A DNA stretch of 64,000 bases, from positions 540,619-604,618 of the forward strand of contig CP064958.1 of the NCBI GenBank assembly GCA_016699085.1, written 5' to 3'. Made by a program: the position numbers and the translations under genes. Below, one piece after another: positions 32,931 through 61,566 of this stretch. Under the pieces are notes generated by a model. The model made no database searches. It was not told the DNA's origin and was given only the letters and a program-made list of their open reading frames with translations. Each line of letters opens with the position of its first letter. Position 1 is the first letter of the stretch. This DNA comes from Candidatus Nomurabacteria bacterium (GTDB lineage Bacteria; Patescibacteriota; Minisyncoccia; Phycocordibacterales; UBA9973).

Positions 32931-33016
32931 GGTCAGGAATAGTTTTCTACTGAAAACTTTCCCGACCCTGGCTCGCGCCGTCGCGCTCCGCCTCGCACAA
33001 AGTGCCCCGCACTTTG
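32931..33016 (-). repeat. tRNA-linked conserved element, copy at tRNA-Lys (hairpin ggtcaggaatagttttctactgaaaactttcccgacc plus GC module ctcgcgccgtcgcgctccgcctcg)
   Basis: Same family as 45911-46036, 47705-47837 and 61421-61566; the most diverged copy. Confidence 0.7.
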
Positions 33017-33089
33017 TGCGCCCGGTAGGAATCGAACCTACGACAATCTCCTTAAGAGGGAGCTGCTCTACCAACTGAGCTACGGGCGC
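33017..33089 (-). tRNA. tRNA-Lys (CTT)
   Basis: Acceptor GCGCCCG/CGGGCGC, anticodon loop CTCTTAA. Confidence 0.85.
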
Positions 33090-33152
33090 AAATATTCTAA
33101 TTACGAATTAGGAATGCAAAATCAGTATACCGAAAATTATAACAAAATCCAG

Positions 33153-33491
33153 TTATCGGTCTTTGTCACCAAGTAGAAGCTCATCAATCTTCTGCCGGTT
33201 GATTTCACCACCATCAATCATGGCATCCAAATAGGGGATGGAATGAGTTCGCATATGTTCCATAAGGTATGTTCGAAGTTCGCCTAAGTTGCGCTTGATA
33301 AAATCAAGCACTTGTTCGCGTTTAGAATCAGGAAGAACTGAAAGTAGTATTGTCGCACTTTTTTCATCCTGTGAGACGATCACTCTCGTTACTGAAACCA
33401 ACGCATCTCTGTTACTGATAGTTTCAATAAATGTTGCTGCAAGTTCTCTAATAAGTTCTTCTATTCGATCGTGTCGGTGTGGATTATTCAT
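33153..33491 (-). CDS. rbfA: ribosome-binding factor A
   Basis: RIEELIRELAATFI...VSVTRV pattern. Confidence 0.85.
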   Translation of the reverse strand: MNNPHRHDRIEELIRELAATFIETISNRDALVSVTRVIVSQDEKSATILLSVLPDSKREQVLDFIKRNLGELRTYLMEHMRTHSIPYLDAMIDGGEINRQKIDELLLGDKDR

Positions 33492-34989
33492 AGATAGTTA
33501 CAAAGGTTTCAAGTATGTCGCCAGCTGAGATTTCAACTTTTGATTCAATCAAAATGCCGCACTCGACGCCTTCGATTACTTCTTTTACTTTTGCTCTGCC
33601 TTGCTCGATGCCGACAATATTACCTTTGCCGATTTCGAAATCACGGCGAAGAATTCTTACTGTTCCGCCATCGACAATTTTACCTTCGGTAACCTTACCG
33701 CCAACGACTTGTTTTTCTTTTGTCTTACTGAAGCATTTAATAATTTTAAGTCGTCCAGTGACCGAGAGTACCTCCTTGCGGGGTTTACGTTTCTCCGCTT
33801 CTTCCTTTAGGAAATCATTCATATGGTAAATAACATCAAATAATTTGATGGTGACGCCAGTTTTCTCATTCAAGTCACGTGCGCGTGGATCTAGTTTCGT
33901 ATTAAAGCCAAGAATTATTGTGGTTGGATCAGAGCCCGCGAGTCTAATATCGTTCTCGCCGATTGATCCGACTGTACTATCAAGAATTTTAAATTTCACT
34001 TCTTCGAGTTCGAGTTTTTTCAATTCTTTAACTACTGCTTCACTTGCACCTTGGACATCTGTTTTAATAATTATCGGAATAGTGACTGTGCCTACGGGAA
34101 CACTATAGGCATCAGGTACAATCTTTTGATTGTTGGCGCAAAAATTTTGTACGCATGCATCAGCTTCTTTTTTAGTAGCAAAGGTCGCAAAGACACTACC
34201 AGCAGGTGGTAGCTCAGAAAATCCTGCAATAGCAATAGGAGATGATACTGTTGCACTATCGATGCTCTTGCCCGTATAGTCTTCGAAAATTCGAACAGGC
34301 GCACTTGCTTTGTCTGCAACAATAAAGCTTCCGCGTGTTACGGTGCCATTTTTAATGATGAGAGTAGATGATATGCCGCGCTTGCGATCAAGATGAGACT
34401 CGATAATCACACCAACGCCTGGGAGGGTTGGATCGGCACGCAATTCTTTTACTTCTGCAACGAGGAGTATGGTATCGAGAAGTTCAGGTATGCCATCGCC
34501 TGTTTTAGCTGATATAGGAACGACTGGTACATCACCGCCATAGCCTTCGAGGTAAATACCTTTTTCCGCTAAATCAATTTTTACTTTTTCAATATTGGCA
34601 CCTGGCTTATCGATTTTATTAATAGCGACGATGAGTGACAATTTACTTTCGGAAATAGTTTGCCAAGCTTCTACTGTTTGTGCTTTGACAGAGTCTTCTG
34701 CTGAGACGACGAGTATGGCAATGTCTGCGGCGATCGCACCACGTTCGCGCATTTTGGTGAATGCTTCATGACCTGGTGTATCTAGAAAGGTAATTTTTTT
34801 ATCTTTGCCTTCATGCTTCTGGATAACTTCGTAGGCAGATAAATGTTGAGTAATGCCTCCGGCTTCACCTGCGGTACTGTTCGACTTCCGAATAAAATCA
34901 AGCAAGGTTGATTTGCCGTGGTCGATATGTCCCATGACAACGACAACAGGGGGACGCTCTATGCTTGTAGGTGTAGTTGCATTTTTCAT
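33484..34989 (-). CDS. infB: translation initiation factor IF-2 (short form)
   Basis: G domain GHIDHGKSTLLD, DTPGHEAF, NKIDK. Confidence 0.9.
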   Translation of the reverse strand: MKNATTPTSIERPPVVVVMGHIDHGKSTLLDFIRKSNSTAGEAGGITQHLSAYEVIQKHEGKDKKITFLDTPGHEAFTKMRERGAIAADIAILVVSAEDSVKAQTVEAWQTISESKLSLIVAINKIDKPGANIEKVKIDLAEKGIYLEGYGGDVPVVPISAKTGDGIPELLDTILLVAEVKELRADPTLPGVGVIIESHLDRKRGISSTLIIKNGTVTRGSFIVADKASAPVRIFEDYTGKSIDSATVSSPIAIAGFSELPPAGSVFATFATKKEADACVQNFCANNQKIVPDAYSVPVGTVTIPIIIKTDVQGASEAVVKELKKLELEEVKFKILDSTVGSIGENDIRLAGSDPTTIILGFNTKLDPRARDLNEKTGVTIKLFDVIYHMNDFLKEEAEKRKPRKEVLSVTGRLKIIKCFSKTKEKQVVGGKVTEGKIVDGGTVRILRRDFEIGKGNIVGIEQGRAKVKEVIEGVECGILIESKVEISAGDILETFVTIYE

Positions 34990-35450
34990 TATTGTTTACT
35001 GTTGGTTATTGCGTTTGTAACAACTGTACTCTCTTCGTCAGTAAGTTCATACGTTGATTCGCCGCGTACAATTGGTTTTGCGAATACACTCATTCGCTCT
35101 CGTGCATAGAGACTCGAAAGTACAATGCCATCGCCGTGTTCATCTGTTAGTGCAATCGCAAAACTTTGATTACTACCAGCATCAGGAAAAGGATTAAATC
35201 GAGTCATGGAAACGCCACGAATTGCTGTCGCGAGCTTGTGGTTAATCGTTGAGAGCTCTCCCTTTATCTGTTTGTTTTCGGATCGTATTTGGCTAATTTC
35301 TTGATTGAGTGCATTGATCTGTCCTTCGAGAGATTGTCCATCTTTACCGCGGAAAAACTTGGCTAGCCTGCGGTGGGTGTGTATAGTAAAAACAGCGAGT
35401 GCGATCGCAAGTAAAATGACTAATATGACGACAATAGTGATTGATTGCAT
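34989..35450 (-). CDS. DUF4446-like membrane-anchored protein
   Basis: N-terminal TM plus coiled coil, and RFNPFPDAGSNQSFAIALTDEHGDGIVLSSL pattern. Confidence 0.5.
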   Translation of the reverse strand: MQSITIVVILVILLAIALAVFTIHTHRRLAKFFRGKDGQSLEGQINALNQEISQIRSENKQIKGELSTINHKLATAIRGVSMTRFNPFPDAGSNQSFAIALTDEHGDGIVLSSLYARERMSVFAKPIVRGESTYELTDEESTVVTNAITNSKQ

Positions 35451-35489
35451 TGAGACAGAGATTATATACTATAAATCGACTTTCGTAAA

Positions 35490-36704
35490 ATGAAAAAAAA
35501 CACTAATAAAAAAAATAAGAGGATATATCTTGACCATGCATCGAGCACTCCGATAGATACATCGGTGTACAATATTCTCACAAAAACGACGAAGACGTTC
35601 TTCGGTAACCCGAGTGCGCTCTACCTTGAAGGACAACAGGCAAAAAAACTGATTGAAGATTCAACAGCAAGTATAGCGAGACTTTTCGACATCCATGCAG
35701 ATGAAATTATTTTTACAAGCGGCGGCACAGAAAGCGATACGCTTGCAATCCAGGGAGTCGTTCGGGGAATTATGACTGACGTTGCCTGGAAAAACCGTCG
35801 GCCACATATACTAGTAAGTGCAATTGAACATGTGGCTGTTTTAGAGACAGTGAAGCAGTTTACAAAGCAGGGGATTGACGTGACGTTGTTGTCGGTGACA
35901 AGCGAAGGTATTGTTGAACCAAAAAGTATTCGGCAGGCAATAACACCTGAGACGATTTTAGTTTCAATCATGTATGCAAACAATGAAATCGGCACTATAC
36001 AACCAATTCGCGAAATTGCAAAAGAAATACGCCATGCAAGAAAGAAAAATAAAAGCTCATATCCATATTTCCATACAGATGCAGCCCAGGCAATCAATTA
36101 TTTGCCAATTCGTATTCCTGCGCTCGGCATTGATATGCTAACCGCAAGCAGCTCAAAGCTATACGGACCAAAAGGTATTGGTATGCTCTATATAAAAAGA
36201 GGAGTTCTCGTTACTCCTATTTTATTTGGCGGTGATCAACAACAGGGATTGCGGCCTGGCACAGAAAGTGCACCGCTGATTGCTGCATTTGCTAAAGCGC
36301 TCGAAATAACAGAGAAAATAAAAGAAAAAGAAACGCTGCGATTGCTGGTACTTAAAAAATTTTTAACATTAGAACTCTTGCGAGCTTTCCCATCCATGCG
36401 TAGTAATGGAAGTAGTGAGGTGAGCTTGCCAAATATTCTCAATGTTACATTCCCGGGATTTACTAGTGAACTTTTGGTCATAGAACTAGACGCAAAAGGT
36501 ATTTCAGTTTCTGCAAAGAGTGCTTGCAAATCTGATGACCCTGAAATCTCTCATGTGCTCGCTGCTATTGGTAAAAATACTCACGATGAGGGAAGTATAC
36601 GCATAGCAATGGGCAGATCAACAACAAAAAATGAGCTGATACATTTTATTGCGTCACTTAAAACAATTTTTGCAAAATATAATACTGTACGTAAAAAATC
36701 CTAA
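35490..36704 (+). CDS. cysteine desulfurase (class V aminotransferase, IscS/NifS-like)
   Basis: SGGTESDTLAI, PLP-lysine region SSSKLYGPKGIG. Confidence 0.85.
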   Translation: MKKNTNKKNKRIYLDHASSTPIDTSVYNILTKTTKTFFGNPSALYLEGQQAKKLIEDSTASIARLFDIHADEIIFTSGGTESDTLAIQGVVRGIMTDVAWKNRRPHILVSAIEHVAVLETVKQFTKQGIDVTLLSVTSEGIVEPKSIRQAITPETILVSIMYANNEIGTIQPIREIAKEIRHARKKNKSSYPYFHTDAAQAINYLPIRIPALGIDMLTASSSKLYGPKGIGMLYIKRGVLVTPILFGGDQQQGLRPGTESAPLIAAFAKALEITEKIKEKETLRLLVLKKFLTLELLRAFPSMRSNGSSEVSLPNILNVTFPGFTSELLVIELDAKGISVSAKSACKSDDPEISHVLAAIGKNTHDEGSIRIAMGRSTTKNELIHFIASLKTIFAKYNTVRKKS

Positions 36705-36720
36705 ATGCTATACTTTTAGT

Positions 36721-37470
36721 ATGAATATTGAAGACTTAACAAAAACACAACTTGTCTTCCTCTTGCTTCTCATCACGTTTGTTACTTCGATTGCGACTAC
36801 CATAGCGACCTATACGCTTTTAGGCACAACACCAGCATCAGTTACAAGTGTTATCAATCGTGTTATTGAGCGAACAATAGAGAAAAATCCAATTGAGGAT
36901 ACAGTAACACCTGTGCAGTCAGTTTTGGTGAGTGAGCAAGATAAATTACTTGCTGTTATTGCAAAATATAAAAATGCAGTAGTCACAGTTGCTTCATCTG
37001 TCAACACAGATTCGTATACAGGGACTGTACTCGATACACAAGGTCATGTCGCGATGGTTGATGTACTTAACTTCACTAACCCTTTTACTGTATCAATCAA
37101 CAAAGAAATATATGATACGACATATGTACGGACCGAAGGAGATTTGGCACTGTATAGAATATTACCAAAGCCAGGCATAGCATTTACATTTGTGCCACTG
37201 CCAATTACTAGTTCACGGTCACCACAAATTGGGGAAGTTGTACTTTTCTTGGGACCTCAAGGTACATTTATTAATAAAGGTACAGTGACAAAAATTATAG
37301 GCGAAAATAGTTCTCAAGCATTTGAAACAACGGTCCCGTTGACCACTGAGCTTACTGGATTGCCGATATTTGGACTCGATGGGAAATTATTAGGGTTTGT
37401 TGATCATGACGCTTTACATATGCCTATAATTCAAAATCCAAGTAAGCTCACTGAACTGTTGCAACCATAG
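36721..37470 (+). CDS. membrane-anchored trypsin-like (S1C/HtrA-like) domain protein, possibly catalytically degenerate
   Basis: His (TQGHVAMV) and Asp (DLALYRI) regions are present, but the GNSGGP serine box is replaced by TGLPIFGLDG. Confidence 0.4.
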   Translation: MNIEDLTKTQLVFLLLLITFVTSIATTIATYTLLGTTPASVTSVINRVIERTIEKNPIEDTVTPVQSVLVSEQDKLLAVIAKYKNAVVTVASSVNTDSYTGTVLDTQGHVAMVDVLNFTNPFTVSINKEIYDTTYVRTEGDLALYRILPKPGIAFTFVPLPITSSRSPQIGEVVLFLGPQGTFINKGTVTKIIGENSSQAFETTVPLTTELTGLPIFGLDGKLLGFVDHDALHMPIIQNPSKLTELLQP

Positions 37471-37546
37471 GCATTGACAAAATATTATAAAGTTTCATAA
37501 TGTAGATTCAGTCATTAATACTTGACGCATTCGTTATACTATACAT

Positions 37547-40240: not shown

Positions 40241-40276
40241 AAACGAAAACACCCAAATGGGTGTTTTCGTTTTTAT
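40240..40276 (+). terminator. intrinsic terminator after clpB
   Basis: aaaacgaaaacacccaaatgggtgttttcgtttttat. Confidence 0.85.
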
Positions 40277-40316
40277 ACTTGTAGACTTCTCTATTAAGAA
40301 ACTGTAGAATTGGCAC

Positions 40317-41790: not shown

Positions 41791-41876
41791 GCGTCGGTGG
41801 TAGAGTGGTCAATTACAACAGACTGTAAATCTGTCGCCTTCGGGCTACGAAGGTTCGAATCCTTCCCGACGCACCA
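41791..41876 (+). tRNA. tRNA-Tyr (GTA)
   Basis: Acceptor GCGTCGG/CCGACGC, anticodon loop CTGTAAA, long variable arm, CCA encoded. Confidence 0.85.
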
Positions 41877-41984
41877 GAATAGAACTTAGCGGTTTCTTCG
41901 AAACCAAGGAATGGGCGTGCCGAAGGCACGCCCATTCTGTTTGCCCTGATTTTACGGGCGGGTAACTGGAAAAAATATCTAAAA

Positions 41985-42794
41985 ATGATAAAGTATGAAT
42001 ACTTTATGGAATCTTTAGATAACCGCAAACCTCTTACTGGCGGAAAGAAAAAAATTGAAGAATACGTCAATCGTATAAAAAACGGAGAATCTAAAGATTC
42101 CATTTTTCAAGGTTTGCCAGAATCATTTATATCTGGTGTCAAAAAAAAACTTGTAGAGCCACCTGATGAAAAAACGAAACAAGAATTAAATGAAATTCCT
42201 TCGCAGTATAAAGGATTAGATTTTGAAATTCTAAAAACACAAAGACGTGAAGCTGATCAAAAAAAGATTGAGGAACTGAGAAAACAATTAGGAGTCACTG
42301 AAGAACACCTAGATAAAAAAAATATTAATTATGATTTACTAAAACCTGAAGAAGTCTTGATAAAACTTGCAGAATATTGTGAGCCCTATATGAGTGCTCC
42401 ACGAGAGGCTGTACAAGATGGTACGTTTGCAGGTGTAGCGAAACTTAAGATTGAAGCAGGAAATATTGTTCTTATTCGCCATGCTGCAGATGAGAATCAT
42501 TTAATTAAGCAAGGAAAAAATGCATCCGCGCAAGAAATGATGGATTCCAGTTTGTTTTCTGGTGGATCCCATGAAGCAGGAGCAGTTCATACCTCCGCAG
42601 ATGTTGAGAATTGGATTGGTAGATATGAGAGATATCCAGTATATGGAGAATTTCGAATACCGGTAAAAGATTTTTTAGATTTGGCAAAAGAAGGTAAAGT
42701 GATTATTGGTAATCTCGGAGAAGCAGAAATTGTAATTTCAGGTGATGTAGCCAAAAAATATCTAACAAAAATTATTGAGAAAGCTAAAGAATAA
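41985..42794 (+). CDS. hypothetical protein (269 aa, Lys-rich)
   Basis: ATG ORF inside the tRNA-Tyr-linked element. Confidence 0.4.
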   Translation: MIKYEYFMESLDNRKPLTGGKKKIEEYVNRIKNGESKDSIFQGLPESFISGVKKKLVEPPDEKTKQELNEIPSQYKGLDFEILKTQRREADQKKIEELRKQLGVTEEHLDKKNINYDLLKPEEVLIKLAEYCEPYMSAPREAVQDGTFAGVAKLKIEAGNIVLIRHAADENHLIKQGKNASAQEMMDSSLFSGGSHEAGAVHTSADVENWIGRYERYPVYGEFRIPVKDFLDLAKEGKVIIGNLGEAEIVISGDVAKKYLTKIIEKAKE

Positions 42795-42800
42795 ATTTTT

Positions 42801-43376
42801 ATGAAAGATGATCTAAGAATAAAACAATTAGAGAAAAAATTTAAGGTCAAAAATATTGGTCTTTTAACTACTGGTCTATTTTTAGAAGATTTCGGTTTAA
42901 CTATACAAATATCAGACGGAATTCTTGATAAAGAAAGTTTGATTGCGCCCTGTATAGTTTTTGAATTATCAAAAAAGCCAAAATTTAGATTTTTGAGTGA
43001 AAATAAATTCCTTAAATCATACCTGACTAAAATTGGCAAAAAGAACATCAAAGAAATGGGTAATCATGAATATATTAATTATATTTTTTCTTCTACAAAA
43101 AACGGTGAAACACGAGAGTATAAAAAATGGAGAGAGAATAATCAGAAGAAAGTTAAATATATTCACTCCCTAATTTCTAAATTTAATAAGAAAAGAAAAA
43201 ATCCAATATTAGAACTTACTCAATTTGAAGATGGTGTTGCACGAATAGATTTTGGAGCTGACGATTCTCTTTTTAATAAAAGACAAAAAATGAGTTTTGT
43301 AAAAAAGAAAAAGCTTTTCGGTGAAATGCTAAATGAGTTTGGCTTATTTTCTACTAATCTGAAAGTACTTAAATAA
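42801..43376 (+). CDS. hypothetical protein (191 aa)
   Basis: ATG ORF inside the tRNA-Tyr-linked element. Confidence 0.4.
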   Translation: MKDDLRIKQLEKKFKVKNIGLLTTGLFLEDFGLTIQISDGILDKESLIAPCIVFELSKKPKFRFLSENKFLKSYLTKIGKKNIKEMGNHEYINYIFSSTKNGETREYKKWRENNQKKVKYIHSLISKFNKKRKNPILELTQFEDGVARIDFGADDSLFNKRQKMSFVKKKKLFGEMLNEFGLFSTNLKVLK

Positions 43377-43838
43377 ATTCAGCCAGTTTTTCTTTTTTAA
43401 TACCCGCCCACCAAAAATCCAAAATGAATCTGCCTCCCATTCCTCCCCAGACTCCTCCTGCGGGGCGGAAGCTTAAACCCCGCCGAATTTCAAAAACCGA
43501 ACTCGCATTTGTATTCGTACACTCCGTCTTTTCCCTTTGGGAAAGCTCTGTGCTTCGCACAGAGGCGCTTCAGTGCACGGATGTCCGATTAGTGTTTGTT
43601 TTGAAAAATTGTTCGAGCTTGGTACAATAGAGACACAAACAAATCCCGAAAGGGATTTTTGTCTTGTGCGTCGAGAGAAAGCCAACTACTTGGCTTTCGT
43701 AAGGATTCGAAAGATTTTTCGTTATCCGTGTATTACGGATCGAAAAATACCTGTGGCAGTCGGCCGAGAAATTCCTTCCCGACGCACAAAAAAATCAATT
43801 ATATCTCATTTACTTGACAGCTTTGCTATACTTGAAAC

Positions 43839-45836: not shown

Positions 45837-45910
45837 GGGCGATTAGTTTAGTGGTAGAACAGCGGTCTCCAAAACCGCTGGCGGGGGTTCGATTCCCTCA
45901 TCGCCCGCAA
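45837..45910 (+). tRNA. tRNA-Trp (CCA)
   Basis: Acceptor GGGCGAT/ATCGCCC, anticodon loop CTCCAAA. Confidence 0.85.
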
Positions 45911-46036
45911 CTTCGAAGAAGTTATCTTTGGGGGAATCGAAGGCCGGAGCGCACGAAGTCGGTCGAAGACCGGCGCGAGGCGGGGTAGCGGAAATTTTCG
46001 AAGAAAATTATCTGTGACCGATTCCCTCATCGCCCT
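45911..46036 (+). repeat. tRNA-linked conserved element, copy at tRNA-Trp, ending with a duplicate of the tRNA-Trp 3' end (cgattccctcatcgccc)
   Basis: gaatcgaaggccggagcg...acgaggcgggg, hairpin gcggaaattttcgaagaaaattatctgtgacc, then the 17-nt tRNA 3'-end copy. Confidence 0.8.
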
Positions 46037-46045
46037 CAGAATAAA

Positions 46046-46396
46046 ATGAATTTAGACGAAATAAATAAAAAAATAAATCCTAAGAATATTCCTTGGTATT
46101 ATCAGAATCCAACAACCTGGCAAAAAATTCGCTACGTATTTTGCCTTATTTTATTAGTTGCATTTTTTACCATACTCATATGGATTATCATCCAGATCAG
46201 TAAGTATAGTATTCTCTGTAAAAACATGGGCGGGACATACCATCAGACTTGGGGAAAACATCAAAACTATAATCATCCAGATGGTTGCTACCTTGATGAA
46301 TTTCAATATCAGTCAAAACAAGAAGAAATAAATGTACTGACTACAAAATACAAGTCCCATTTTCCATCGCTCAAATTTTATATTCAGCAATTTTAA
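46046..46396 (+). CDS. small membrane protein (hypothetical)
   Basis: One TM; ATG ORF. Confidence 0.4.
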   Translation: MNLDEINKKINPKNIPWYYQNPTTWQKIRYVFCLILLVAFFTILIWIIIQISKYSILCKNMGGTYHQTWGKHQNYNHPDGCYLDEFQYQSKQEEINVLTTKYKSHFPSLKFYIQQF

Positions 46397-47529: not shown

Positions 47530-47704
47530 TTTGTTGTGCCCAGAGACAATCCCCCGCGACTCTCGTTTTGTCGTCACAAGACTCGGTCTGGGCACCAGCT
47601 CGTCTATTTTTGAAGCTTCAAAAATGAGACTCCGCTGTTCGATTCTCTACAGGAGCAAAGCAGTTTGCTCGTTCTCAGGACACAAAAAACGCTATGCTTA
47701 TTTT
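47530..47704. repeat. decayed region with partial tRNA-Leu(CAA) fragments in both orientations (gtgcccagagacaatcc; ggtctgggcaccag; ctgttcgattctctacagg)
   Basis: Several short matches to the tRNA 3' end and T-arm within about 590 bp of non-coding DNA. Confidence 0.55.
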
Positions 47705-47837
47705 GTGCCCAGAGAGAGAATCGGTCACGAGTATTTTTCTACTGAAAAATCTCGCGACCCCGCCTCGTGTCGCCACGCTCCGGCTTTCGATTCTCTTGAC
47801 CATTATAAAAACACTTCAAAAAGAAGTGTTTTTATAA
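47705..47837 (-). repeat. tRNA-linked conserved element, copy at tRNA-Leu(CAA): 19-nt duplicate of the tRNA 3' end, hairpin ggtcacgagtatttttctactgaaaaatctcgcgacc, GC module, then a perfect palindrome cattataaaaacacttc/gaagtgtttttataatg
   Basis: gtgcccagagagagaatcg appears at 47705 and again as the tRNA 3' end at 47840. Confidence 0.85.
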
Positions 47838-47924
47838 TGGTGCCCAGAGAGAGAATCGAACTCTCATGATGTTGCCATCGAAGGATTTTGAGTCCTTTGC
47901 GTCTACCAATTCCGCCATCTGGGC
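47838..47924 (-). tRNA. tRNA-Leu (CAA)
   Basis: Anticodon loop CTCAAAA, long variable arm, CCA encoded. Confidence 0.85.
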
Positions 47925-51117: not shown

Positions 51118-51157
51118 TACAAAACAATATAAAAAAAGTTCCCACATGGGAACTTTT

Positions 51158-53353: not shown

Positions 53354-53587
53354 ATGACCTTAACTAATACTATAGTTTCTTTTTTAAAGCAAATAAAAAC
53401 CACCGATAACTGCTTATCGGTGGAGACGCTCATCTTTTCATGTATCATTCAGGGGTGTTGTGTTTCATCCATGCTCAGTATCCGACGTGATTAGCACTTT
53501 GTGCTCGAATCCGGGATAAAGACAAATCTGAACTAGCACATCATAGAGCTATCTAAGATAAGTATACCATTTTCTGCAATATACTAT

Positions 53588-54439
53588 TTAGCACCTGCGG
53601 ATTTCACCGAGTTCTTCTTTGATAAGTCCTTTGATTTCAAGTATTGAGATAGTTGCATTGGCTTCGTGAATTGGCTTTTCAAGTAGTCTTAAAAGTTCAT
53701 CTTTTGGTATTGGTTCGCGCAGAAGGTCTAATATTTGTAATTCTTCTATAGAGCAATCAATGAGCTCTCGTGAGACATCTGCATTTTCCGTAGGTTCAAA
53801 CCCAAGCAATTCCAAAAGCTGTGAAGCATTTGTTATAGGGGTGGCGCCAAGTCGGATGAGCATATGAGTTCCAGCAGAAAGTTCTGAAAAAATTGACCCA
53901 GGCACAGCGCCGATATCACGGTTATATTCGGTGGCAAGCTTAGAGGTAATAAGGGTGCCGGATTTTTCTTGCGCCTCAATAATAAGTACCGCTTTGGCAA
54001 TACCAGCCATTAAGCGGTTGCGCTTTGGGAATGTCCACATCGCTGCTTTGGTGTCTGGTTCAAATTCCGAAATGAGCGCACCACCCGAAGTGACTATTTT
54101 TTCAGCCAATGCACGATTACTCGCCGGATATAGATTTTTTGGATTAAGTCCAGAGCCCGGGAAGGCTACAGTCGTAAGACCACTATCTATGGCCTTACGG
54201 TGTGCAATACTATCAATGCCAAGTGCTAGTCCTGATACAATGACGATAGGGTATCCTCGTAATCCTTCAATTAATTTTTCACACACATCTCTGCCGTAAC
54301 TTGTATGTTTTCGTGAACCGACAATAGTTAAGTATACGGATCCAGGTTTGGGTAGGGTCCCGATGCAATAGAGCTTCTTTGGTGGTTGAGGGATTTCAAG
54401 AAGCTGCTTAGGTATCTCGTTTTCCTCTAGAAGTTTCAT
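53588..54439 (-). CDS. dprA: DNA-processing protein DprA (Smf)
   Basis: Rossmann-like GIDSIAHRKAI core. Confidence 0.85.
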   Translation of the reverse strand: MKLLEENEIPKQLLEIPQPPKKLYCIGTLPKPGSVYLTIVGSRKHTSYGRDVCEKLIEGLRGYPIVIVSGLALGIDSIAHRKAIDSGLTTVAFPGSGLNPKNLYPASNRALAEKIVTSGGALISEFEPDTKAAMWTFPKRNRLMAGIAKAVLIIEAQEKSGTLITSKLATEYNRDIGAVPGSIFSELSAGTHMLIRLGATPITNASQLLELLGFEPTENADVSRELIDCSIEELQILDLLREPIPKDELLRLLEKPIHEANATISILEIKGLIKEELGEIRRC

Positions 54440-54486
54440 ACGCTATGACATTTGTCCATTTTAGCATTTTTTTGTATACTCGAGCC

Positions 54487-55770: not shown

Positions 55771-55779
55771 GAAAAGCTC

Positions 55780-56670: not shown

Positions 56671-56671
56671 T

Positions 56672-57682
56672 ATGGCTTCATTTTGGAATAGTCTACCCAA
56701 GCCCTTCTTTGCCCTTGCACCTATGGCGGATGTTACGGACGCAGCATTTCGAAGTATAATTGCAAAATATTCTAATCATGGTACTCCCGATGGGGGCCCC
56801 GATGTTTTTTGGACTGAGTTTGTTTCTGCTGATGGTCTCATGAGTCAAGGCAGGGAAGTATTGAAAAGAGATTTAATTTTTAGTGATAATGAACGTCCAA
56901 TAGTTGCGCAGCTTTTTGGTTCTAATCCTGAAGTTATGGAAGGTGCAGCAAGGCTCTGTATGGAGCTTGGATTTGATGGTATCGACATCAATATGGGTTG
57001 TCCAGATAAATCTATTGAGAAACAAGGATCCGGAGCAGCCATGATACAAAATCCTGAACAAGCTAAAGCTGTTATTGTTGCAGCGAAACGTGGGGCACCA
57101 ACGCTACCAGTATCAGTTAAAACAAGGGTTGGCTATAACAAGGTCATACTCGATGATTGGTTGCCCCAACTACTTCGTTGCGATCTTGCTGCTATTACTG
57201 TTCATGCGCGGACTCGCAAAGAAATGTCGAGTGTGCCGGCGCGTTGGGAACACGTAAAAGAAGCTGTAGAAATTAGAAATGCTATAGGGGCAGAGACGCT
57301 CATTATTGGGAACGGCGATGTTAAAAATATTGAAGATGCAAAACAAAAAGCATTTGAAACCAATTGCGATGGTGTGATGTTGGGGAGAGCAATTTTTGGC
57401 AACCCATGGTTGTTTGCCCAATCGAGAAATAATCAAGACAGTGTGCAAGGTATTTTATTAGAAGAGCGATTGCTAGTTATGGTTGAACATACAAAACTTT
57501 TTGAAGAATTACTCGGTGATATCAAAAGTTTCGCGATTATGAAAAAACACTTCAAGTCTTATATTGGAAGTTTTGAAGGCGCTAAGGAGTTTCGAATGCA
57601 GCTTATGGATGAAGCCAAAAACAGCCATGATGTAGAGAAGATTGTGGATAACTTTCTTGCTGTGCACAAGAATCTGTTATAA
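56672..57682 (+). CDS. tRNA-dihydrouridine synthase (Dus family)
   Basis: ALAPMADVTD...IDINMGCP FMN/active-site motifs; ATG 56672. Confidence 0.85.
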   Translation: MASFWNSLPKPFFALAPMADVTDAAFRSIIAKYSNHGTPDGGPDVFWTEFVSADGLMSQGREVLKRDLIFSDNERPIVAQLFGSNPEVMEGAARLCMELGFDGIDINMGCPDKSIEKQGSGAAMIQNPEQAKAVIVAAKRGAPTLPVSVKTRVGYNKVILDDWLPQLLRCDLAAITVHARTRKEMSSVPARWEHVKEAVEIRNAIGAETLIIGNGDVKNIEDAKQKAFETNCDGVMLGRAIFGNPWLFAQSRNNQDSVQGILLEERLLVMVEHTKLFEELLGDIKSFAIMKKHFKSYIGSFEGAKEFRMQLMDEAKNSHDVEKIVDNFLAVHKNLL

Positions 57683-57746
57683 TGCATTCTGATGAGTCAA
57701 AAGAAAAAGCAAAGATGTTTTTTGTCGACCATTTTTGTTGTTTCGC

Positions 57747-57782
57747 AAAAACACCCCGCTATCGCGGGGTGTTTTTGTTTTA
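57747..57782 (+). terminator. intrinsic terminator after the dus gene
   Basis: aaaaacaccccgctatcgcggggtgtttttgtttt. Confidence 0.85.
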
Positions 57783-57865
57783 TCACTTCTTATGCATTAT
57801 TAAAAACTATTTGAAATAATCAGTTTTTTTGTTTTATTCCCATATGCGCTATACTCTCATTATCT

Positions 57866-58900
57866 ATGCAAGAACTGACTCTCTATCGTAAATATCGCCC
57901 ACAGAAATTTGATGAAGTTATGGGGCAGGAACATATTGTAAAAGTTCTATCTGCTTCGATAAAAAGTGGCAAGATTGCTCATGCCTATCTCTTCTGTGGT
58001 GGTCGAGGCACCGGCAAGACAACGATTGCAAGAATCTTGGCAAAAGAGCTCGGTACCAATGAAAATGATATTTATGAAATCGATGCTGCGTCCAATAATG
58101 GCGTTGATGATATTCGCGAGCTTCGTGAAGGCGTATCGACGCTACCGTTTGATTCAAAGTATAAGATTTATATTCTTGATGAAGTGCACATGCTTTCGAA
58201 AGGTGCATTTAATGCATTACTGAAAACACTCGAAGAGCCGCCACAGCATGCCTTGTTTATGCTTGCAACAACAGAGATTGAGAAAGTACCTGAGACGATT
58301 ATTTCTCGCTGCCAAGTGTTTACGTTAAAAAAGCCGAACGAAGCGATGCTCAAAGAAATAGTGAAAAATACTGCCAAGAAGGAAGGGTATACATTGGCTG
58401 ATGGATCTCTTGGGCTTATTGCAACACTCGGTGATGGGTCATTTCGTGATACGTTAGGTATACTGCAGAAAGTAATCAGCTACTCAAAAGATACTAAAAT
58501 TAATGAAGCAGAAGTTGCATTGATAACTGGTGCGCCACGGAGTGAATTAGTGAATGACTTTATCACAATGCTTGCAACGAGAGATATTGCTGGTGGCTTT
58601 GCAACTATCCAAGAAGCAGTGAAAGCTAATATTGATATTAAAATATATTTGAAACTTATACTTGCAAAGCTCCGCTTTGCACTGGTGCTTCGGTATGCAC
58701 CTAGTATGAAGCCATTGCTCGCAGAATCAGTTTCGGAAAGCGACCTGATATTTCTAGAAAAATTAATTAAAGATAAGCCTGATACAATAACCTCTAAGTC
58801 CCTGGAAGTGCTTCTGGCAACGTCTCAAAAACTTCGATACGCGTTTATTCCAAATCTACCTCTTGAGCTCGCACTCGTTGAAATTATTGAGGGAAAATAA
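57866..58900 (+). CDS. dnaX: DNA polymerase III subunit gamma/tau (short)
   Basis: YRPQKF...GGRGTGKTT...DEVHML...SRCQ. Confidence 0.85.
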   Translation: MQELTLYRKYRPQKFDEVMGQEHIVKVLSASIKSGKIAHAYLFCGGRGTGKTTIARILAKELGTNENDIYEIDAASNNGVDDIRELREGVSTLPFDSKYKIYILDEVHMLSKGAFNALLKTLEEPPQHALFMLATTEIEKVPETIISRCQVFTLKKPNEAMLKEIVKNTAKKEGYTLADGSLGLIATLGDGSFRDTLGILQKVISYSKDTKINEAEVALITGAPRSELVNDFITMLATRDIAGGFATIQEAVKANIDIKIYLKLILAKLRFALVLRYAPSMKPLLAESVSESDLIFLEKLIKDKPDTITSKSLEVLLATSQKLRYAFIPNLPLELALVEIIEGK

Positions 58901-58932
58901 AATCTCAAGCAACTTGTGCTTGAGATTCGTGC

Positions 58933-59616
58933 TTAAGATGATGTGGCTACCTGGAGGATTCTCTCCTTTATTTTAGAGAGTAATATTTCAGGCTTATGCA
59001 TTAGCCAATAAAAAGGAAGCTCAATGACAACATCCTTTTTACTTTTCATCATCAGGCGCAAATAATATTCCAGATCACACGGCTCATTTTTCAAAAAATA
59101 TGATAGTTCAGACCACGATCTGGTTTGGAAATGAAGCACTCTTGTTATTCTTTTCCCCAGTACCTGATGTAAGAAATCTTCTTTTTTGTAGCGAGTACAT
59201 TTGAATTCCTTAATGTGTTGTGTATCGAGTACAAGTCCATGAGGATGATGTAGAAAATAATCAAAATTTCCATTTACCGGTGAAACTTCTACGAGACTTA
59301 TTGGATCTGTTGCAATGTCTATTCTCATTGCATTAGGGAAAAATGATTCAAATAAATAAAGTGTGTAGTCAACTTCATTTTGATTTCGGAAAAAAATATC
59401 CGCAATTAGGTCCCATTTTTTCTTAGGATCTCTAAAACTTCCCTTATACGCTACAACTAGGTCTTTGGGATAATTGCGCAAAACATCAAAATGAATTCCT
59501 CTGGCAGGCACAAGTTGGAGTCCGTCAAGCTTTGCATCTTTTCGTATTACTTCGATTTGTTGAATTTTTCTTGGCCAAAGTGTCAAAGTCGATATGTAGA
59601 TTTTTGGAATGTACAT
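58933..59616 (-). CDS. hypothetical protein (227 aa)
   Basis: ATG ORF. Confidence 0.4.
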   Translation of the reverse strand: MYIPKIYISTLTLWPRKIQQIEVIRKDAKLDGLQLVPARGIHFDVLRNYPKDLVVAYKGSFRDPKKKWDLIADIFFRNQNEVDYTLYLFESFFPNAMRIDIATDPISLVEVSPVNGNFDYFLHHPHGLVLDTQHIKEFKCTRYKKEDFLHQVLGKRITRVLHFQTRSWSELSYFLKNEPCDLEYYLRLMMKSKKDVVIELPFYWLMHKPEILLSKIKERILQVATSS

Positions 59617-59661
59617 TTTTACCTCCTGTTTTTTTCAATTTACATTGTATTTTAAATTTTG

Positions 59662-59946
59662 TCAATCAATTGTATATTTTATTTTGTTATTTTTGATTAT
59701 AGTTAGCTTATCCTTTCGACTTAATTTTTTTAATTCAGCTTCTCGATGGCGAGCTTCATTGTATGTCGCAAAGACTTCCTTGTATTGTAATGTGACAGGC
59801 CGTCTAATCTTTGTATAATGAGCACCAGATTTCAAATTATTATGGGCATACAGCCTCTTGGTAAGATTATTCGTTGACCCTATATAGAAAGTAGCATCAC
59901 TGCATTTTAAAATGTAGGTGAAGTATGCTTGGTGTGCAGTTTTCAT
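59662..59946 (-). CDS. GIY-YIG nuclease-family protein (UPF0213-like)
   Basis: YILKCSDATFYIGSTNNLTKRLYAHN... Confidence 0.8.
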   Translation of the reverse strand: MKTAHQAYFTYILKCSDATFYIGSTNNLTKRLYAHNNLKSGAHYTKIRRPVTLQYKEVFATYNEARHREAELKKLSRKDKLTIIKNNKIKYTID

Positions 59947-59947
59947 T

Positions 59948-60688
59948 TTATTTTCCGCTTATTGTGAGACTTTCAACCATTTTCTTGAGATCATCTCCAA
60001 ATGCTCTAACAGGAACTGCCGTTATGCCTTTATTTATATACTGTTCCATATCACCACTGAAGTTATTTTCCAATTCTTCAAGCTCTGGTGAGTCAAAATA
60101 GGGAATAAAACTCATGTATGCTTGAAGTACAGTAAGACCAGTGGATTGGTTTTTCGGGATGAAAAATGTGTATTGTGTTCGAGATTCGGTATTGAGTCTG
60201 CTAGCTTCGGGATTATGTATTCCTGATAGTCCAGATGGAGTTGTTATAGAAAAAAGTCTGAAAGATGAAAGTATTTCTGGGGCCACTTCTCCTGTGGCAA
60301 TTTTCAAAAGAAAATCATCTCCACAATCATTTTTGTTTTGTGGTTCAAGCTCATACATTCTAATGCCACTGCGGATAAAACTCTCTGAATTTTCAAGTTG
60401 TACATCTGGAAATACATATTCAAAGTCAAAGACATTCAAGGTGTCAGCTGTACGATAAGTGTCTTCCTCAGGACAATTTTTGTTACCCTCATTGAGACTA
60501 ATAGAGCCCCAGCTTTTAGGAAAAATAAATTCTAATCCGTACTCTGAAATTTTATATGTTACATATTCTTGTGATTCTGAAATATGTGTCGCATCAGGCT
60601 TGTTGATTGTTTCGTTTTTAATCGAAACAATCAATGCGATACCAACTAATGCAATGATGCCAAGAGCAATAAGATGCGATCTATTCAT
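59948..60688 (-). CDS. membrane-anchored hypothetical protein
   Basis: N-terminal TM. Confidence 0.4.
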   Translation of the reverse strand: MNRSHLIALGIIALVGIALIVSIKNETINKPDATHISESQEYVTYKISEYGLEFIFPKSWGSISLNEGNKNCPEEDTYRTADTLNVFDFEYVFPDVQLENSESFIRSGIRMYELEPQNKNDCGDDFLLKIATGEVAPEILSSFRLFSITTPSGLSGIHNPEASRLNTESRTQYTFFIPKNQSTGLTVLQAYMSFIPYFDSPELEELENNFSGDMEQYINKGITAVPVRAFGDDLKKMVESLTISGK

Positions 60689-60740
60689 ATGAATAGTATA
60701 GCAAATAGATTAATCTTTTTATCTTGATTCGCTTAACAGT

Positions 60741-61352
60741 TTATTGTGTCGCAATACATTGTGATTCGGCCAAATCTTTTTTAATTAGAGTAGTCAAATC
60801 TAGGCTTACTTTCGTATGTATTATTGCGTCAAAACCATCAGATATATAGCTACTTGCTTCGGGACAATTTTCTGGAGTTACTGGAAGAGTTGTTGGATTC
60901 CAGTAGGTAAGCACATCTGCCTCTGCTACAACTGGTTTTTTATATAAATCCTCGTACACTTTTTTACGAGAATTTAAGTCATATATTTTTAAACCTCGAT
61001 CAGGGCCAGTGCCGCTATCTAATACAAGGAAATTATTAGTGAAAAGCATAAAATATTCGGCATACTCATTCTTCACTTCAAAGTCATTTGTGCCTACTGT
61101 ATATGAACATTCAAATTTCTCATTTTCATCTGTCTTAAACTTTACTAAAATATCTGAACCAGCGTCAAGATTTGAATTTTTTTGAATAGCAAAATATTTT
61201 GAATTCTCAAAACATTTATTTAAATTAGGTGTATTAGTAGTAGCAAGTTGTGCAGGTTGAATATTATTTTTGTCGTATATATATATTCCGTAACAAATCG
61301 CTAAAATTGTTACAATTATTATTGAAATAATGAGGCCTTTTTGTTTGTTCAT
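60741..61352 (-). CDS. membrane-anchored hypothetical protein
   Basis: N-terminal TM. Confidence 0.4.
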   Translation of the reverse strand: MNKQKGLIISIIIVTILAICYGIYIYDKNNIQPAQLATTNTPNLNKCFENSKYFAIQKNSNLDAGSDILVKFKTDENEKFECSYTVGTNDFEVKNEYAEYFMLFTNNFLVLDSGTGPDRGLKIYDLNSRKKVYEDLYKKPVVAEADVLTYWNPTTLPVTPENCPEASSYISDGFDAIIHTKVSLDLTTLIKKDLAESQCIATQ

Positions 61353-61420
61353 GCGTATGAGTAATTAATAATAAACTAAACTTAGTAAACTCAACAAGCA
61401 AATGACGCTTCGCTTGACTT

Positions 61421-61566
61421 GCTGGGGGACAGGGATTCGGTCACAGGTATTTTTCTACTGAAAAATCTCGCGACCCTGCCTCGCACCGTCGTGCTCCGGC
61501 TTTCGAATCCCAACCCGCCCCATCGATGCAAATTTGCAATAGAAGTATCTATACAAATTTCCATTG
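61421..61566 (-). repeat. tRNA-linked conserved element, copy at tRNA-Gln: 19-nt duplicate of the tRNA 3' end (gctgggggacagggattcg), hairpin gtcacaggtatttttctactgaaaaatctcgcgacc, GC module ctgcctcgcaccgtcgtgctccggctttcgaatcc
   Basis: Duplicate of 61564-61582; the track ORF 61391..61705 is spurious. Confidence 0.85.

Follow-up and report, generated by a model that had tools for sequence, protein, structure and literature searches.

The closest described systems are the elements that tyrosine recombinases integrate at tRNA genes, together with their integrase-less derivatives, the cis-mobilizable elements (CIMEs); at their sites an intact tRNA gene precedes the insert, which is flanked by a direct repeat of the tRNA 3' part from the T-loop onward, they accrete in tandem at one site, and the CIMEs have no integrase in cis. 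Casposon insertion at tRNA 3' ends gives 14-15-bp duplications. In the small genome studied here, from which a 64-kb stretch was analysed (the window), most tRNA genes are followed by a short inserted unit ending in a three-armed fold and a copy of the tRNA tail. These units share the above features of tRNA-integrating elements and CIMEs, but they are as small as ~150-200 bp, form a family at tRNAs of 18 amino-acid types, and come without a cognate autonomous element or integrase found here. Whereas ordinary attP arms have no such parts, the modules in these units add a covarying three-way junction and an inverted, tRNA-matched segment (X').

Distribution and empty sites

The module lies 26-115 nt behind its tRNAs at 120 or more genome loci, the hosts being mostly Patescibacteria with some Elusimicrobia. 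The initial annotation had tied it to tRNA genes; copies away from them exist but are a minority, since 91 of 119 model matches fall within 200 nt downstream of a same-strand tRNA. The module has no match in Rfam (even at E up to 10), it was not found in IMG/VR or in phage or plasmid collections, and no description of it was found in the literature searched. The units look like an apparently undescribed, widespread way to park DNA and small gene cassettes at tRNA genes.

Comparison with genomes lacking the insertion identified empty sites for tRNA-Leu(CAA) and tRNA-Trp (empty/filled pairs L170/L142, L146/L188 for Leu-CAA; L145/L137 for Trp), in which the downstream flank of the tRNA in the empty genome sits beyond the distal repeat in its filled counterpart, and the insert at filled sites carries its own hairpin. 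The units are thus insertions relative to empty orthologous sites, bounded by direct repeats from C56, as had been proposed from the T-loop breakpoint. In a sample picked independently of the motif, occupancy of orthologous sites is patchy at ~20% (8/52 for Trp, 9/38 for Leu(CAA) and 3/10 for Tyr). Units can be tandem (three in L095, two each in L018 and L046) and gene-carrying: the order in L043 is tRNA-Asp, module, X, one ORF, module and X, the second module being degenerate, and the L011 cargo of 1.1 kb includes two tRNA genes. Decayed copies stand alongside intact ones, as in a birth-and-death repeat family.

Architecture of the module

A unit comprises an intact tRNA gene, whose positions 56-73 are X; next come either a hairpin or cargo of as much as ~2 kb, then X', a conserved structured core and a second X. 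X' is the complement of the tRNA T-loop and T-stem, sometimes of the acceptor strand as well, and the class-1 core consists of P2 and P3. Read in reverse complement, the module 5' edges AGAGAATCGAA, GGGATTCGAA and GGGGGAATCGAA match the neighbouring tRNA over its T-loop and the 3' strand of its T-stem. Pairing of the edge with the distal repeat forms P1, which closes a three-way junction; a further hairpin lies between tRNA and module. The distal copy agrees with the tRNA from C56 in the T-loop in all cases, and across 86 modules its identity is at least 0.94 at positions 56-63, ~0.8 to position 73 and 0.4 by position 77. Exact repeat lengths cluster at 17-24 nt, with a fixed left boundary and right ends clustering at positions 73-77.

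Pairing is seen in 89.7% of cells compared with 33-44% when the partners are slid, and double-change cells, indicative of covariation, number 216 compared with 73 in shuffles. One G:U (G:T) pair is invariant (42/42), and the junction also has tandem G.A pairs and a bulged A; the covariation, the invariant G:U and the tandem G.A pairs are equally compatible with RNA. In a genome of 39% GC, the GC-rich core and P1 remain conserved and covary, whereas the acceptor portion of the distal repeat is decaying, which argues for a functional structure and against the earlier reading of these elements as scars.

The core and P1 form a conserved single-strand fold of the tRNA-sense strand, which as DNA folds better than its complement (-23.6 versus -20.1, -18.0 versus -15.8 and -21.1 versus -16.1 kcal/mol). 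Against an expectation of 1.7, the heptamer GCGAAGC has 12 occurrences, and its complement has none. Among terminal loops the most frequent are C-GACG-G (30) and C-AGCA-G (28), neither of them of the GNRA or UNCG type, and the triloops C-GAG-G (16), C-GAA-G (14) and C-GTA-G (4) recur. As mini-hairpins of DNA, d(GCGAAGC) and C-GNA-G loops have unusual stability, and the loop types are a weak hint of DNA folding. X' is complementary to tRNA positions 54-62, its CGAA covering T54-G57 and reaching 3 nt beyond the part used in P1. Spacer hairpins are unrelated among copies of one genome though the cores are ~90% identical, so the likeness of the cores does not come from whole-unit transposition between tRNAs.

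Sites in the window

ARAGORN places the tRNA genes where the initial annotation had put them, and a covariance model (CM) built from other genomes recovers the conserved module downstream of tRNA-Lys, tRNA-Trp, tRNA-Leu(CAA) and tRNA-Gln (Table 1). The motif GAGGCGGGGT, at one mismatch or fewer, has 6 occurrences compared with 0.85 expected. A distal tRNA copy of 17-19 nt had been claimed for these sites; exact copies of about that length are present at Leu, Gln and Trp, but at Lys the only tRNA-region repeat is CACAAAG (7 nt, tRNA end plus flank).

Table 1. Features of the tRNA-linked units and of module copies in the window
Feature	Position	Strand	Details
Unit A', Asn	9679..9860	(-)	100% identical to 11656-11837 (D1, 182 nt)
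Two-ORF cassette between unit A copies	9861..11655	(-)	ORFs 10706-11599 (+), 9951-10568 (-)
ORF-less unit A, Asn	11656..11837	(-)	repeat D1; fold z -7.25
tRNA-Asn, intact	11831..11907	(-)	ARAGORN
Degenerate intergenic module copy	16891..16973	(-)	CM 31.5 bits, E 1e-8
Non-tRNA module copy	28817..28911	(-)	CM E 1e-5; fold z -5.9
Second Lys core, tandem, degenerate	32847..32910	(-)	CM 20.7 bits, E 8e-5; P3 decayed
Class-1 core, Lys	32911..33008	(-)	CM 63.9 bits, E 3e-20, aligned
tRNA-Lys(CTT), intact	33016..33089	(-)	ARAGORN
tRNA-Tyr, intact	41791..41876	(+)	ARAGORN
Cargo, tRNA-Tyr to its module	41877..43661	(+)	ORFs 41985-42794 (269 aa), 42801-43376 (191 aa)
Class-4 module, Tyr	43662..43790	(+)	1.9 kb from tRNA-Tyr
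tRNA-Trp, intact	45837..45908	(+)	ARAGORN
Class-1 module, Trp	45926..46039	(+)	CM 76.2 bits, E 1.4e-24
Trp module, X'	45930-45941		
Trp module, long-P2 core	45942-46018		
Trp module, distal repeat	46019-46035		17 nt, exact
Second Leu module, class-3, tandem	47532..47653	(-)	CM E 0.0035
Class-1 module, Leu	47703..47801	(-)	CM 95.1 bits, E 2.5e-31
Leu module, distal repeat	47705-47723		tRNA 56-74; 19 nt, exact copy
Leu module, P2 + P3 core	47724-47785		
Leu module, X'	47786-47796		T-loop/T-stem complement
Spacer, tRNA-Leu to module	47797..47837	(-)	perfect 16-bp A/T-rich hairpin, terminator-like by sequence
tRNA-Leu(CAA), intact	47838..47924	(-)	ARAGORN + Rfam tRNA; positions 56-73 = proximal repeat
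Class-1 module, Gln	61419..61517	(-)	CM 93.9 bits, E 7e-31
Gln module, distal repeat	61419-61439		21 nt, exact
Gln module, core	61440-61501		
Gln module, X'	61502-61511		
tRNA-Gln, intact	61566..61637	(-)	ARAGORN

The three-way-junction fold of the class-1 Leu module has z -4.7 as RNA and z -5.2 as DNA, and the spacer hairpin before it is unconserved between module copies. Its class-3 neighbour has its own T-complement (GTAGAGAATCGAA), a P2 motif as in the class-1 module, a P3 unlike that module's and a tRNA 3' copy that has degenerated (GATTGTCTCTGGGCAC); class 3 is also present in L197, L156, L056 and L154. Behind the Trp module the next ORF begins at 46046. P1 of the Lys core is CUUUGUG/CACAAAG, of which the T-arm is not the source, and this core subtype recurs in L097, L084 and L149.

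At the Tyr and Asn right ends, which the initial annotation had set beside the four copies, the modules are related ones of class 4, in which the entire tRNA 3' strand copy is paired, and Asn has two identical copies. Along the Tyr module lie, successively, the complement of the acceptor 3' strand (43666-43675), the conserved hairpin GAAAGCCAAC..TTGGCTTTC, the T-complement GTAAGGATTCGAA (43700-43712), A/T-rich hairpins and a tRNA-Tyr 3'-end copy (43770-43787); its DNA fold (-34.6 kcal/mol, z -8.0) has acceptor-like and T-like outer stems, and neither ORF of the Tyr cargo has a Pfam match. Unit A at Asn consists of the tRNA end GAGCC, a terminator, the class-4 module and a tRNA-Asn 3'-end copy again ending in GAGCC, the sequence at which all junctions of the array lie. 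The cassette between the unit A copies encodes a protein with SET and AdoMetDC domains (ORF 10706-11599) and terminates in the hairpin TTCGAAC..GTTCGGAGCC. Because the 182-nt duplicate around this cassette is 100% identical, it indicates a recent event and current activity.

Of the copies away from tRNAs, that at 28817-28911 directly follows the stop of ORF 28937-30634 and has as P1 an arbitrary 14-bp stem (GUGGAUUUUUAAGA/UCUUAAAAAUCCAC) together with a P3 identical to that of L145, and that at 16891-16973 overlaps a 44-nt tandem repeat (D20). Non-tRNA copies elsewhere have arms of 24-28 bp common to L145 and L138. The initial annotation, whose observation is partly confirmed and whose interpretation is partly supported, had overlooked X', the spacer hairpin, the second Leu module, the Tyr and Asn modules and the two non-tRNA copies.

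Proposed recombination in trans and rival explanations

Neither the window nor the surroundings of the Asn array yielded a recombinase, Xer-like ORFs adjoin modules in only 2 of ~200 loci, and neither an excised circle nor a free form of the element was observed. The label "non-autonomous" therefore fits, as no recombinase is encoded in cis; a tyrosine integrase, earlier named as the agent, is at most a candidate, with none found in the window and X' foreign to ordinary attL/attR. We give about an even chance to the proposal that a recombinase supplied in trans makes these units as non-autonomous insertions, the module serving as a folded att arm. What inserts would be a small circle of X, spacer or cargo, X' and core, and the site-specific recombinase, perhaps the host Xer-type tyrosine recombinase, would be encoded at another place in the genome. 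X' would pair with X in single-stranded DNA, so that the fold would rebuild the duplex of the tRNA T-loop-to-acceptor segment beside a constant arm (the base of P3), and it might work as a structural att site, much as attC does in integrons and the folded attP does in CTX phage. Crossover at the P3/P1 junction (tRNA position 55/56) would restore the tRNA and displace the old 3' end to the far side. Counting against recombination in trans, an X-carrying element must suit one tRNA, yet the family occurs at 18 amino-acid types, and the non-tRNA copies have arbitrary P1 stems and no direct repeat.

The module may instead be a cis-acting structured RNA in the tRNA 3' trailer, the direct repeats merely tracing its origin, which we consider a tentative and somewhat unlikely explanation. 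X' would pair either with the T-arm 3' half of its own tRNA, causing that tRNA to misfold, or with the distal copy, in which case P1 would close an aptamer built on the three-way junction; the RNA could serve as a switch, as a signal for processing or quality control, or as a clamp neutralising an orphan tRNA 3' fragment. Such a role would suit the strong covariation of the junction with its invariant G:U, tandem G.A pairs and bulged A, the GC-rich core and P1 kept in an AT-rich genome while the acceptor copy decays, the complementarity of X' to tRNA 54-62, the invariable placement on the tRNA-sense strand and the location of non-tRNA copies directly behind a stop codon or terminator; in filled sites the distal repeat is followed by the original terminator (L137), so tRNA and module could share one transcript. 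However, a hairpin with A and T runs usually lies between the two and may terminate transcription, the exact repeat runs well past the 7-9 bp of P1, and empty sites, the large majority, function without the module. Decayed copies, tandems and gene cargo are unexpected of a host RNA, the terminal loops are unlike the usual stable RNA tetraloops, and the lack of an Rfam match also speaks against it.

We regard it as unlikely that the module is a REP-like or miniature transposable repeat moved by a transposase whose gene lies at another locus. The enzyme might be of the single-strand HUH type or a casposase-like integrase that cuts with a wide stagger; it would use X' as a built-in guide that pairs with the conserved T-loop or other hairpins, and gap repair would leave the tRNA 3' copy as a long duplication of the target site. 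The P1 arms are inverted repeats, arbitrary or long at non-tRNA copies (14 bp in the window, 24-28 bp in L145 and L138), and the core at 28817-28911 shares its P3 with L145 while the arms differ. X' is largely complementary to C56-C62, a near-universal segment, so many tRNAs could be within reach of a single element, which would explain the 18 amino-acid types. The repeat boundaries, fixed on the left and at 73-77 on the right, match the expectation for staggered cuts, and casposons (PMC5137440) are a precedent for tRNA 3'-end targeting. Against a transposase stand the spacer hairpin, which would belong to the element but is unconserved among copies, the lack of any transposase seen in the window, repeats that reach 12 nt or more past the tRNA (L137) and non-tRNA copies without flanking duplication; in L142 the distal copy has 4 mismatches to the resident tRNA although X' matches that tRNA, which a fresh duplication does not predict. 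That the units are inert remains of old, larger integrations or slippage tandem duplications with no present function agrees with the lack of genes in cis and with the degenerate copies (the second Lys core, 16891-16973 and the second L043 module), but is highly improbable given one core conserved across phyla with compensatory changes, GC-rich stems retained in AT-rich genomes and the identical Asn duplicate.

Comparison with cassette systems and dispersed repeats

As in Prochlorococcus tycheposons and in ssrA/tRNA island arrays such as the Dehalococcoides ssrA islands (PMC3146451), cargo units gather at tRNA/tmRNA 3' ends, leave arrays of partial tRNA repeats and vary in content among strains. 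Tycheposons and these islands, however, encode their own recombinases and are not known to have a conserved folded module or an inverted tRNA segment. REP/REPIN and MITE families are a further parallel: like the units, they are short dispersed non-coding repeats that form hairpins, lie behind genes or terminators and include both intact and decayed copies; here, however, the arms derive from the neighbouring tRNA, the direct tRNA-end repeats are long, and neither the GTAG-type REP head nor a RAYT gene was seen.

The resemblance to integrons lies in an imperfect palindrome at the distal end of the unit, whose outer inverted repeat, as in attC, holds the primary-site sequence, in a structure more conserved than its sequence with one strand the better folder, and in ORF-less and single-gene cassettes, the tRNA-Asn array having a duplicated cassette by the primary site. 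The platform, however, is a tRNA gene and not attI, no IntI gene lies beside it, class-1 modules lack the R''/R' consensus (RYYYAAC/GTTRRRY), the segment in common has 17-24 nt and not 7, and the folded form is a three-way junction whose core is conserved in sequence. CTX phage differs in targeting dif and not the tRNA T-loop/3' end, and its phage genes are absent here. Its attP(+), like other Xer-dependent elements, nevertheless has two inverted target-like copies 65-150 nt apart that fold in single-stranded DNA into the duplex of the chromosomal site; as in the units described here, both copies remain at one element end after integration, and a host recombinase could act in trans.

Module structure and tRNA-derived repeats

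The window is a segment of bacterial chromosome (GC about 39%) with genes for ClpB, GyrA, TopA, RelA and a short IF2 of 501 aa, and one of its proteins is identical to a protein of a JGI metagenome contig. Nine tRNA genes were found by ARAGORN, and six of seven tRNA loci have a module or a related variant behind them. A gene for DprA, which protects single-strand DNA in natural transformation, is relevant here only as a possible source of such DNA.

Comparison of four sites on the tRNA strand bore out the proposal of the initial annotation that a common module lies behind tRNA-Leu(CAA), tRNA-Gln, tRNA-Trp and tRNA-Lys; three of the four were grouped by a repeat finder (families D4 and D6), and GAGGCGGGGT occurs six times with at most one mismatch, against 0.85 expected. 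The distal copy of the tRNA 3' end that had been described for all four sites is exact over 19 nt at Leu, 21 nt at Gln and 17 nt at Trp, where it runs from T-loop C56 to just beyond the discriminator; the direct repeat stands at both ends of the insert, and the tRNA is intact. At tRNA-Lys this description does not hold: the site has two tandem cores, and its sole repeat is the 7-nt CACAAAG, spanning the tRNA end. Overlooked earlier was a segment at the 5' edge of the module, X', that is reverse-complementary to the neighbouring tRNA over its T-loop and T-stem 3' strand (AGAGAATCGAA at Leu, GGGATTCGAA at Gln, GGGGGAATCGAA at Trp). Pairing of X' with the distal copy of the tRNA 3' segment (X, positions 56-73) forms the helix P1, and the hairpins P2 and P3 are the other arms of the three-way junction that P1 closes; an extra hairpin, unlike from site to site, lies between the tRNA and X'. 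The whole insert, made up of a spacer hairpin or cargo, X', the core and the second copy of X, is here called a unit.

Coordinates of modules and associated features in the window and in two related-genome loci (L047, L067)
Feature	Coordinates	Strand	Remarks
Class-1 module, tRNA-Leu(CAA)	47703-47801	-	
Class-1 module, tRNA-Gln	61419-61517	-	
Class-1 module, tRNA-Trp	45926-46039	+	
Class-1 module, tRNA-Lys	32911-33008	-	
Copy of tRNA-Tyr 3' end	43770-43787		in module behind two ORFs
Hairpin of Tyr module	43673-43700	+	GAGAGAAAGCCAAC..TTGGCTTTCGT
Same hairpin, Asn modules	9782-9809; 11759-11786	-	96% identical, Tyr vs Asn
Cassette array behind tRNA-Asn	2652-11837	-	eleven intergenic hairpin junctions and two Asn modules, one strand
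DUF305 gene	554-964		
Off-tRNA module copy	28817-28911		
Off-tRNA module copy	16891-16973		
Exact 44-nt tandem repeat	16948-17045		GTCGCGCTGCGCAGAGTCTTTAAAAAAGATCATCTGCACTCGCT x2
dprA	53588-54439	-	
XerC/D-like gene	L047:2932-3846	-	44 nt from tRNA-Lys module, convergent
XerC/D-like gene	L067:6072-7016	-	347 nt upstream of non-tRNA module

Single-sequence RNA folding recovered the three-way junction (z of -4.7, -3.5 and -5.8, and -1.4 for Trp), and DNA folding of single sequences gave the same junction. An alignment (A1) and a covariance model (R1) were built from 42 compact copies, with the structure on A1 drawn by hand; standard pairs fill 89.7% of the A1 cells, against 33-44% when the partners are slid by 1-3 columns, and both partners are changed in 216 cells (73 in shuffles). 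P2 consists of GCC, a bulged G, a likely tandem G.A/A.G, GC and a variable hairpin, while P3 starts as GGUCGYG...YGUGACC; one A in P3 is bulged, its tip varies, and it contains a G:U pair invariant in 42/42 copies. The fold belongs to the tRNA-sense strand, since G:U pairs are common and A-C pairs rare. Among 86 well-placed modules, the complementarity of X' to the tRNA is at least 0.94 at positions 56-62, 0.81 at 63 and 0.70 at 64 and then falls to background, which limits P1 to 7-9 bp, whereas the identity of the distal copy to the tRNA stays at about 0.8 through position 73 and has faded by 77. Pairing does not account for the repeat beyond P1, which speaks for a duplication or recombination of DNA.

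Besides this class 1, three other arrangements can be distinguished. Class 2 (related-genome loci L006, L028, L153, L161 and L129) combines one long hairpin with a small GAANC-UGUAA-GNUUC hairpin, and class 3 (the second Leu module of the window, L197, L156, L056 and L154) has the P2 of class 1 and a different P3. In class 4, represented by the Asn and Tyr modules of the window, the complement of the acceptor strand is also present, with a conserved hairpin between it and the T-complement, and the entire copy of the tRNA 3' strand is paired (z of -7.3 and -8.0), which counts in favour of an integrative mechanism. A hairpin similar to the one that Tyr and Asn share, AGCAAGCAAAC..TTGCTTGC, occupies the same place in L129. 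A reading of GTGCCCAGA, in the second Leu module, as complementary to the acceptor was dropped, as this sequence is a conserved part of class 3 at other tRNAs. A subtype with P1 formed by UUGUG/CACAA at the extreme tRNA end comprises the window Lys site, L097 and L084. In some class-1 modules (L013, L026, L027, L036, L092, L137, L152 and L196) an additional hairpin of 3-4 bp, its loop being UAAU, UACU or UAUU, lies between GACCGA and the tRNA copy, and the small hairpin that is the hallmark of class 2 is related to it. Copies away from tRNAs, two in the window and others in L067, L145 and L138, lack a direct repeat, and their arms are arbitrary or long. The 44-nt tandem repeat of the window overlaps a degenerate module copy between divergent signal-peptidase and peptidyl-tRNA-hydrolase genes.

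Against Rfam 15, only tRNAs reached the gathering score in the whole window, and no match fell on the modules between 45800 and 47950 at E up to 10. Known motifs compared by eye were each set aside: the bulge length is wrong for a K-turn in P2, the conserved junction strands of a hammerhead or other ribozyme core are missing, a T-loop mimic would need the absent U54, and a T-box does not fit. The group I tRNA introns of Patescibacteria are located in the anticodon loop and bear no relation to the module (PMC13011429).

Occurrence across genomes and empty sites

Searching one genome per species for the exact pattern gave at least 120 loci. Among the matches listed, most come from Saccharibacteria, Paceibacterota/Parcubacteria and other Patescibacteria and some from Elusimicrobia, WS2 and WWE3; a few GC-rich matches look like chance. 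As the loci that share the module are mainly from Patescibacteria, the organism of the window is probably one as well. Where a listed locus has a tRNA upstream on the same strand, the module mostly follows it at a distance of 26-115 nt, and X' and the distal copy agree with that tRNA. At least 17 amino-acid types are represented among the listed loci, and the tRNA-Gln of the window makes eighteen. R1 gave 119 matches in 100 loci, 91 of them at most 200 nt behind a tRNA of the same strand and the remainder mostly at locus edges. In loci L002-L111, tRNAs for Ser, Arg, Val, Phe and Ala are often occupied, and no module stands behind tRNA-Thr (0/14) or tRNA-Ile (0/2). No description of the module was found in the literature searched, outside which lie most subscription journals, so that an earlier description is possible; the family is real, widespread and apparently undescribed, and marks small insertion units at tRNA genes.

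A sample independent of the motif, 80 loci around homologues of MiaA, whose gene lies between tRNA-Trp and tRNA-Leu(CAA), showed model-detected modules at 8/52 tRNA-Trp, 9/38 tRNA-Leu(CAA) and 3/10 tRNA-Tyr genes. In the empty locus L170, AATGCAAAATAAATCCCTTTCATATATAG follows the tRNA; in the filled L142, a near-identical sequence follows the distal repeat. Likewise, the terminator behind tRNA-Trp in the empty L145 stands behind the distal repeat in the filled L137, where a new hairpin is found behind the tRNA and the repeat reaches 12 nt beyond the tRNA, and the L146/L188 pair has the same pattern. These three pairs provide an empty attB with continuity of the flanks, which are 65-90% identical and not from the same strain; a strain-level comparison through exact protein look-up returned only short or identical contigs. 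The initial annotation had named an ancestral tRNA trailer as the contrary case, and the pairs speak for insertion instead. The units are insertions at the 3' parts of tRNA genes, with direct repeats from C56 and a conserved sense-strand fold, and an insertional origin is in our judgement probable.

The distal copy of L142 (CAAGTCTCTCCTCCGGCAC) departs from the resident tRNA at four positions and has the exact sequence of the tRNA 3' end in the relative L191, and X' of L142 agrees with the resident tRNA. This fits an element that displaced the host 3' end with its own X and X', after which the 5' strands of the tRNA were compensated, in a single case where the tRNAs also differ elsewhere. With strict positioning of the distal copy, little is left of an apparent closer fit of X' to the tRNA (36 to 6 over the distal copy), L142 being the sole clear case.

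Tandem units, cargo and the tRNA-Asn array

The units can stand in tandem and carry cargo, and both intact and decayed copies occur; that the modules are inert scars, the other reading offered in the initial annotation, we regard as highly improbable. Three identical units, with an assembly gap nearby, follow one another in L095, and two units each in L018 and L046. In L043, tRNA-Asp is followed by a module and X, then by one ORF (about 190 aa) and by a second module with X, and in L011 a tRNA is separated from its module by 1.1 kb including tRNA-His and tRNA-Arg. Behind tRNA-Tyr of the window, two ORFs lacking a Pfam match precede the module. One comparison contig, L126 (from SRR11674009), starts near tRNA-Lys and ends at tRNA-Tyr; assembly breaks at module-bearing tRNAs are as expected for repeats or strain variation, and the module accounts for such breaks in metagenomes.

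Behind tRNA-Asn come an ORF-less unit, then a cassette of two ORFs and then the unit again at 100% identity, with all junctions at GAGCC. The array hairpins have the form TCTTCCGAAC-(6 to about 110 nt)-GTTCGGAGC, their 3' arm is similar to the tRNA-Asn acceptor end, and about 12 small ORFs lie between them; many are followed by a conserved AAGTGAACGTTGTGTATGTTGTGAAGGT or a TTGACW/TAnnnT promoter. The locus resembles in its behaviour an integron array in which a cassette beside the primary site was freshly duplicated, and this counts for an integrative mechanism. Strains with the DUF305 gene (the window, L122, L123 and L124) differ in content to its right (window 965 onward), where L122 lacks the array hairpins and its genes include those for a CsoR-like regulator and a copper P-type ATPase; this region is a strain-variable island.

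Mechanism, alternative explanations and known systems

We give about an even chance to the explanation that the units are integrative. A circle of X, spacer or cargo, X' and core would integrate through site-specific exchange at the P3/P1 junction, with P1 restoring the tRNA gene segment in duplex form, much as folded attC rebuilds integron core sites and folded CTX phage DNA rebuilds dif. DNA folding that is stronger on the sense strand than on its complement counts for it, as does the frequency of GCGAAGC (12, against 1.7 expected and 0 for the complement). Against it, the spacers are unrelated although the cores are alike, and the mechanism gives no account of one family at 18 tRNA types. 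No free form was found: in IMG/VR the exact motif had 0 matches and a looser one matched 49 loci, none upheld by the model, and in PLSDB and INPHARED the module had no BLAST match. Nor was the enzyme found: Pfam scans of 40 window ORFs and a motif scan of the remaining ones detected no recombinase. The interpretation of the initial annotation stands in outline, with its structure incomplete and its enzyme unproven. A strict recombinase motif scan returned nothing, and a looser one of about 200 loci only three Xer-like ORFs (L047, L067 and L143), whose position beside modules in L047 and L067 may be chance.

All of the structural evidence is equally compatible with a role of the module as RNA, a role that we consider rather doubtful. 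C-GACG-G and C-AGCA-G, the terminal loops seen most often, are unlike the usual RNA tetraloops, which counts for integrative units. A transposon with a long target duplication appears unlikely. MITEs bear their own terminal inverted repeats and make a short target duplication, whereas the module arms mirror the adjacent tRNA and the repeat measures 17-24 nt with one arm included. Because L145 and L138 share long arms, a MITE-like subfamily may exist.

Building on the integrative explanation, we tentatively propose, as a possibility short of probable, that Patescibacteria and some other uncultivated lineages capture cassettes with tRNA 3' ends serving as attI, each unit ending in a folded single-stranded three-way-junction att that would rebuild the T-loop-to-acceptor duplex for a host recombinase (e.g. 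Xer) acting in trans. If true, this would be an integron-like platform lacking an integron integrase, on which gene cassettes and units free of ORFs could be stored at the 3' side of most tRNA genes. Patescibacteria are described as having highly reduced genomes, and a recurrent structured insertion unit behind many tRNA genes would be a main route of gene gain and strain variation in them. A working single-stranded fold would add to the few recombination systems that read DNA shape, not sequence (integron attC, CTX phage), and show hairpin mimicry of a tRNA gene; an RNA would be a large new tRNA-linked structured family absent from Rfam. In either case the covariance model is a ready annotation marker for such loci.

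In comparison with known systems, tRNA elements of tyrosine recombinases carry the integrase inside the element by the att site, whereas none was found for the modules in the window. No intI lies by the primary site at tRNA-Asn; the genes beyond it are housekeeping, and the 10 kb to the left of the window contain no integrase. Integron attC has the core RYYYAAC...GTTRRRY and L''/L' boxes, in place of which class-1 modules have GGAWTCG...CGAWTCC, and the Asn-array hairpins (TCCGAAC...GTTCGGA) merely resemble the attC consensus. The short Asn-array junctions, CTCTTCCGAAC ATCCAC GTTCGGAGCAA, have an 11-6-11 layout reminiscent of Xer sites and may be dif-like, as in Xer-dependent elements of the CTX type. 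One integron trait is present at tRNA-Asn, namely a co-oriented cassette array in which each cassette ends in a structured palindrome.
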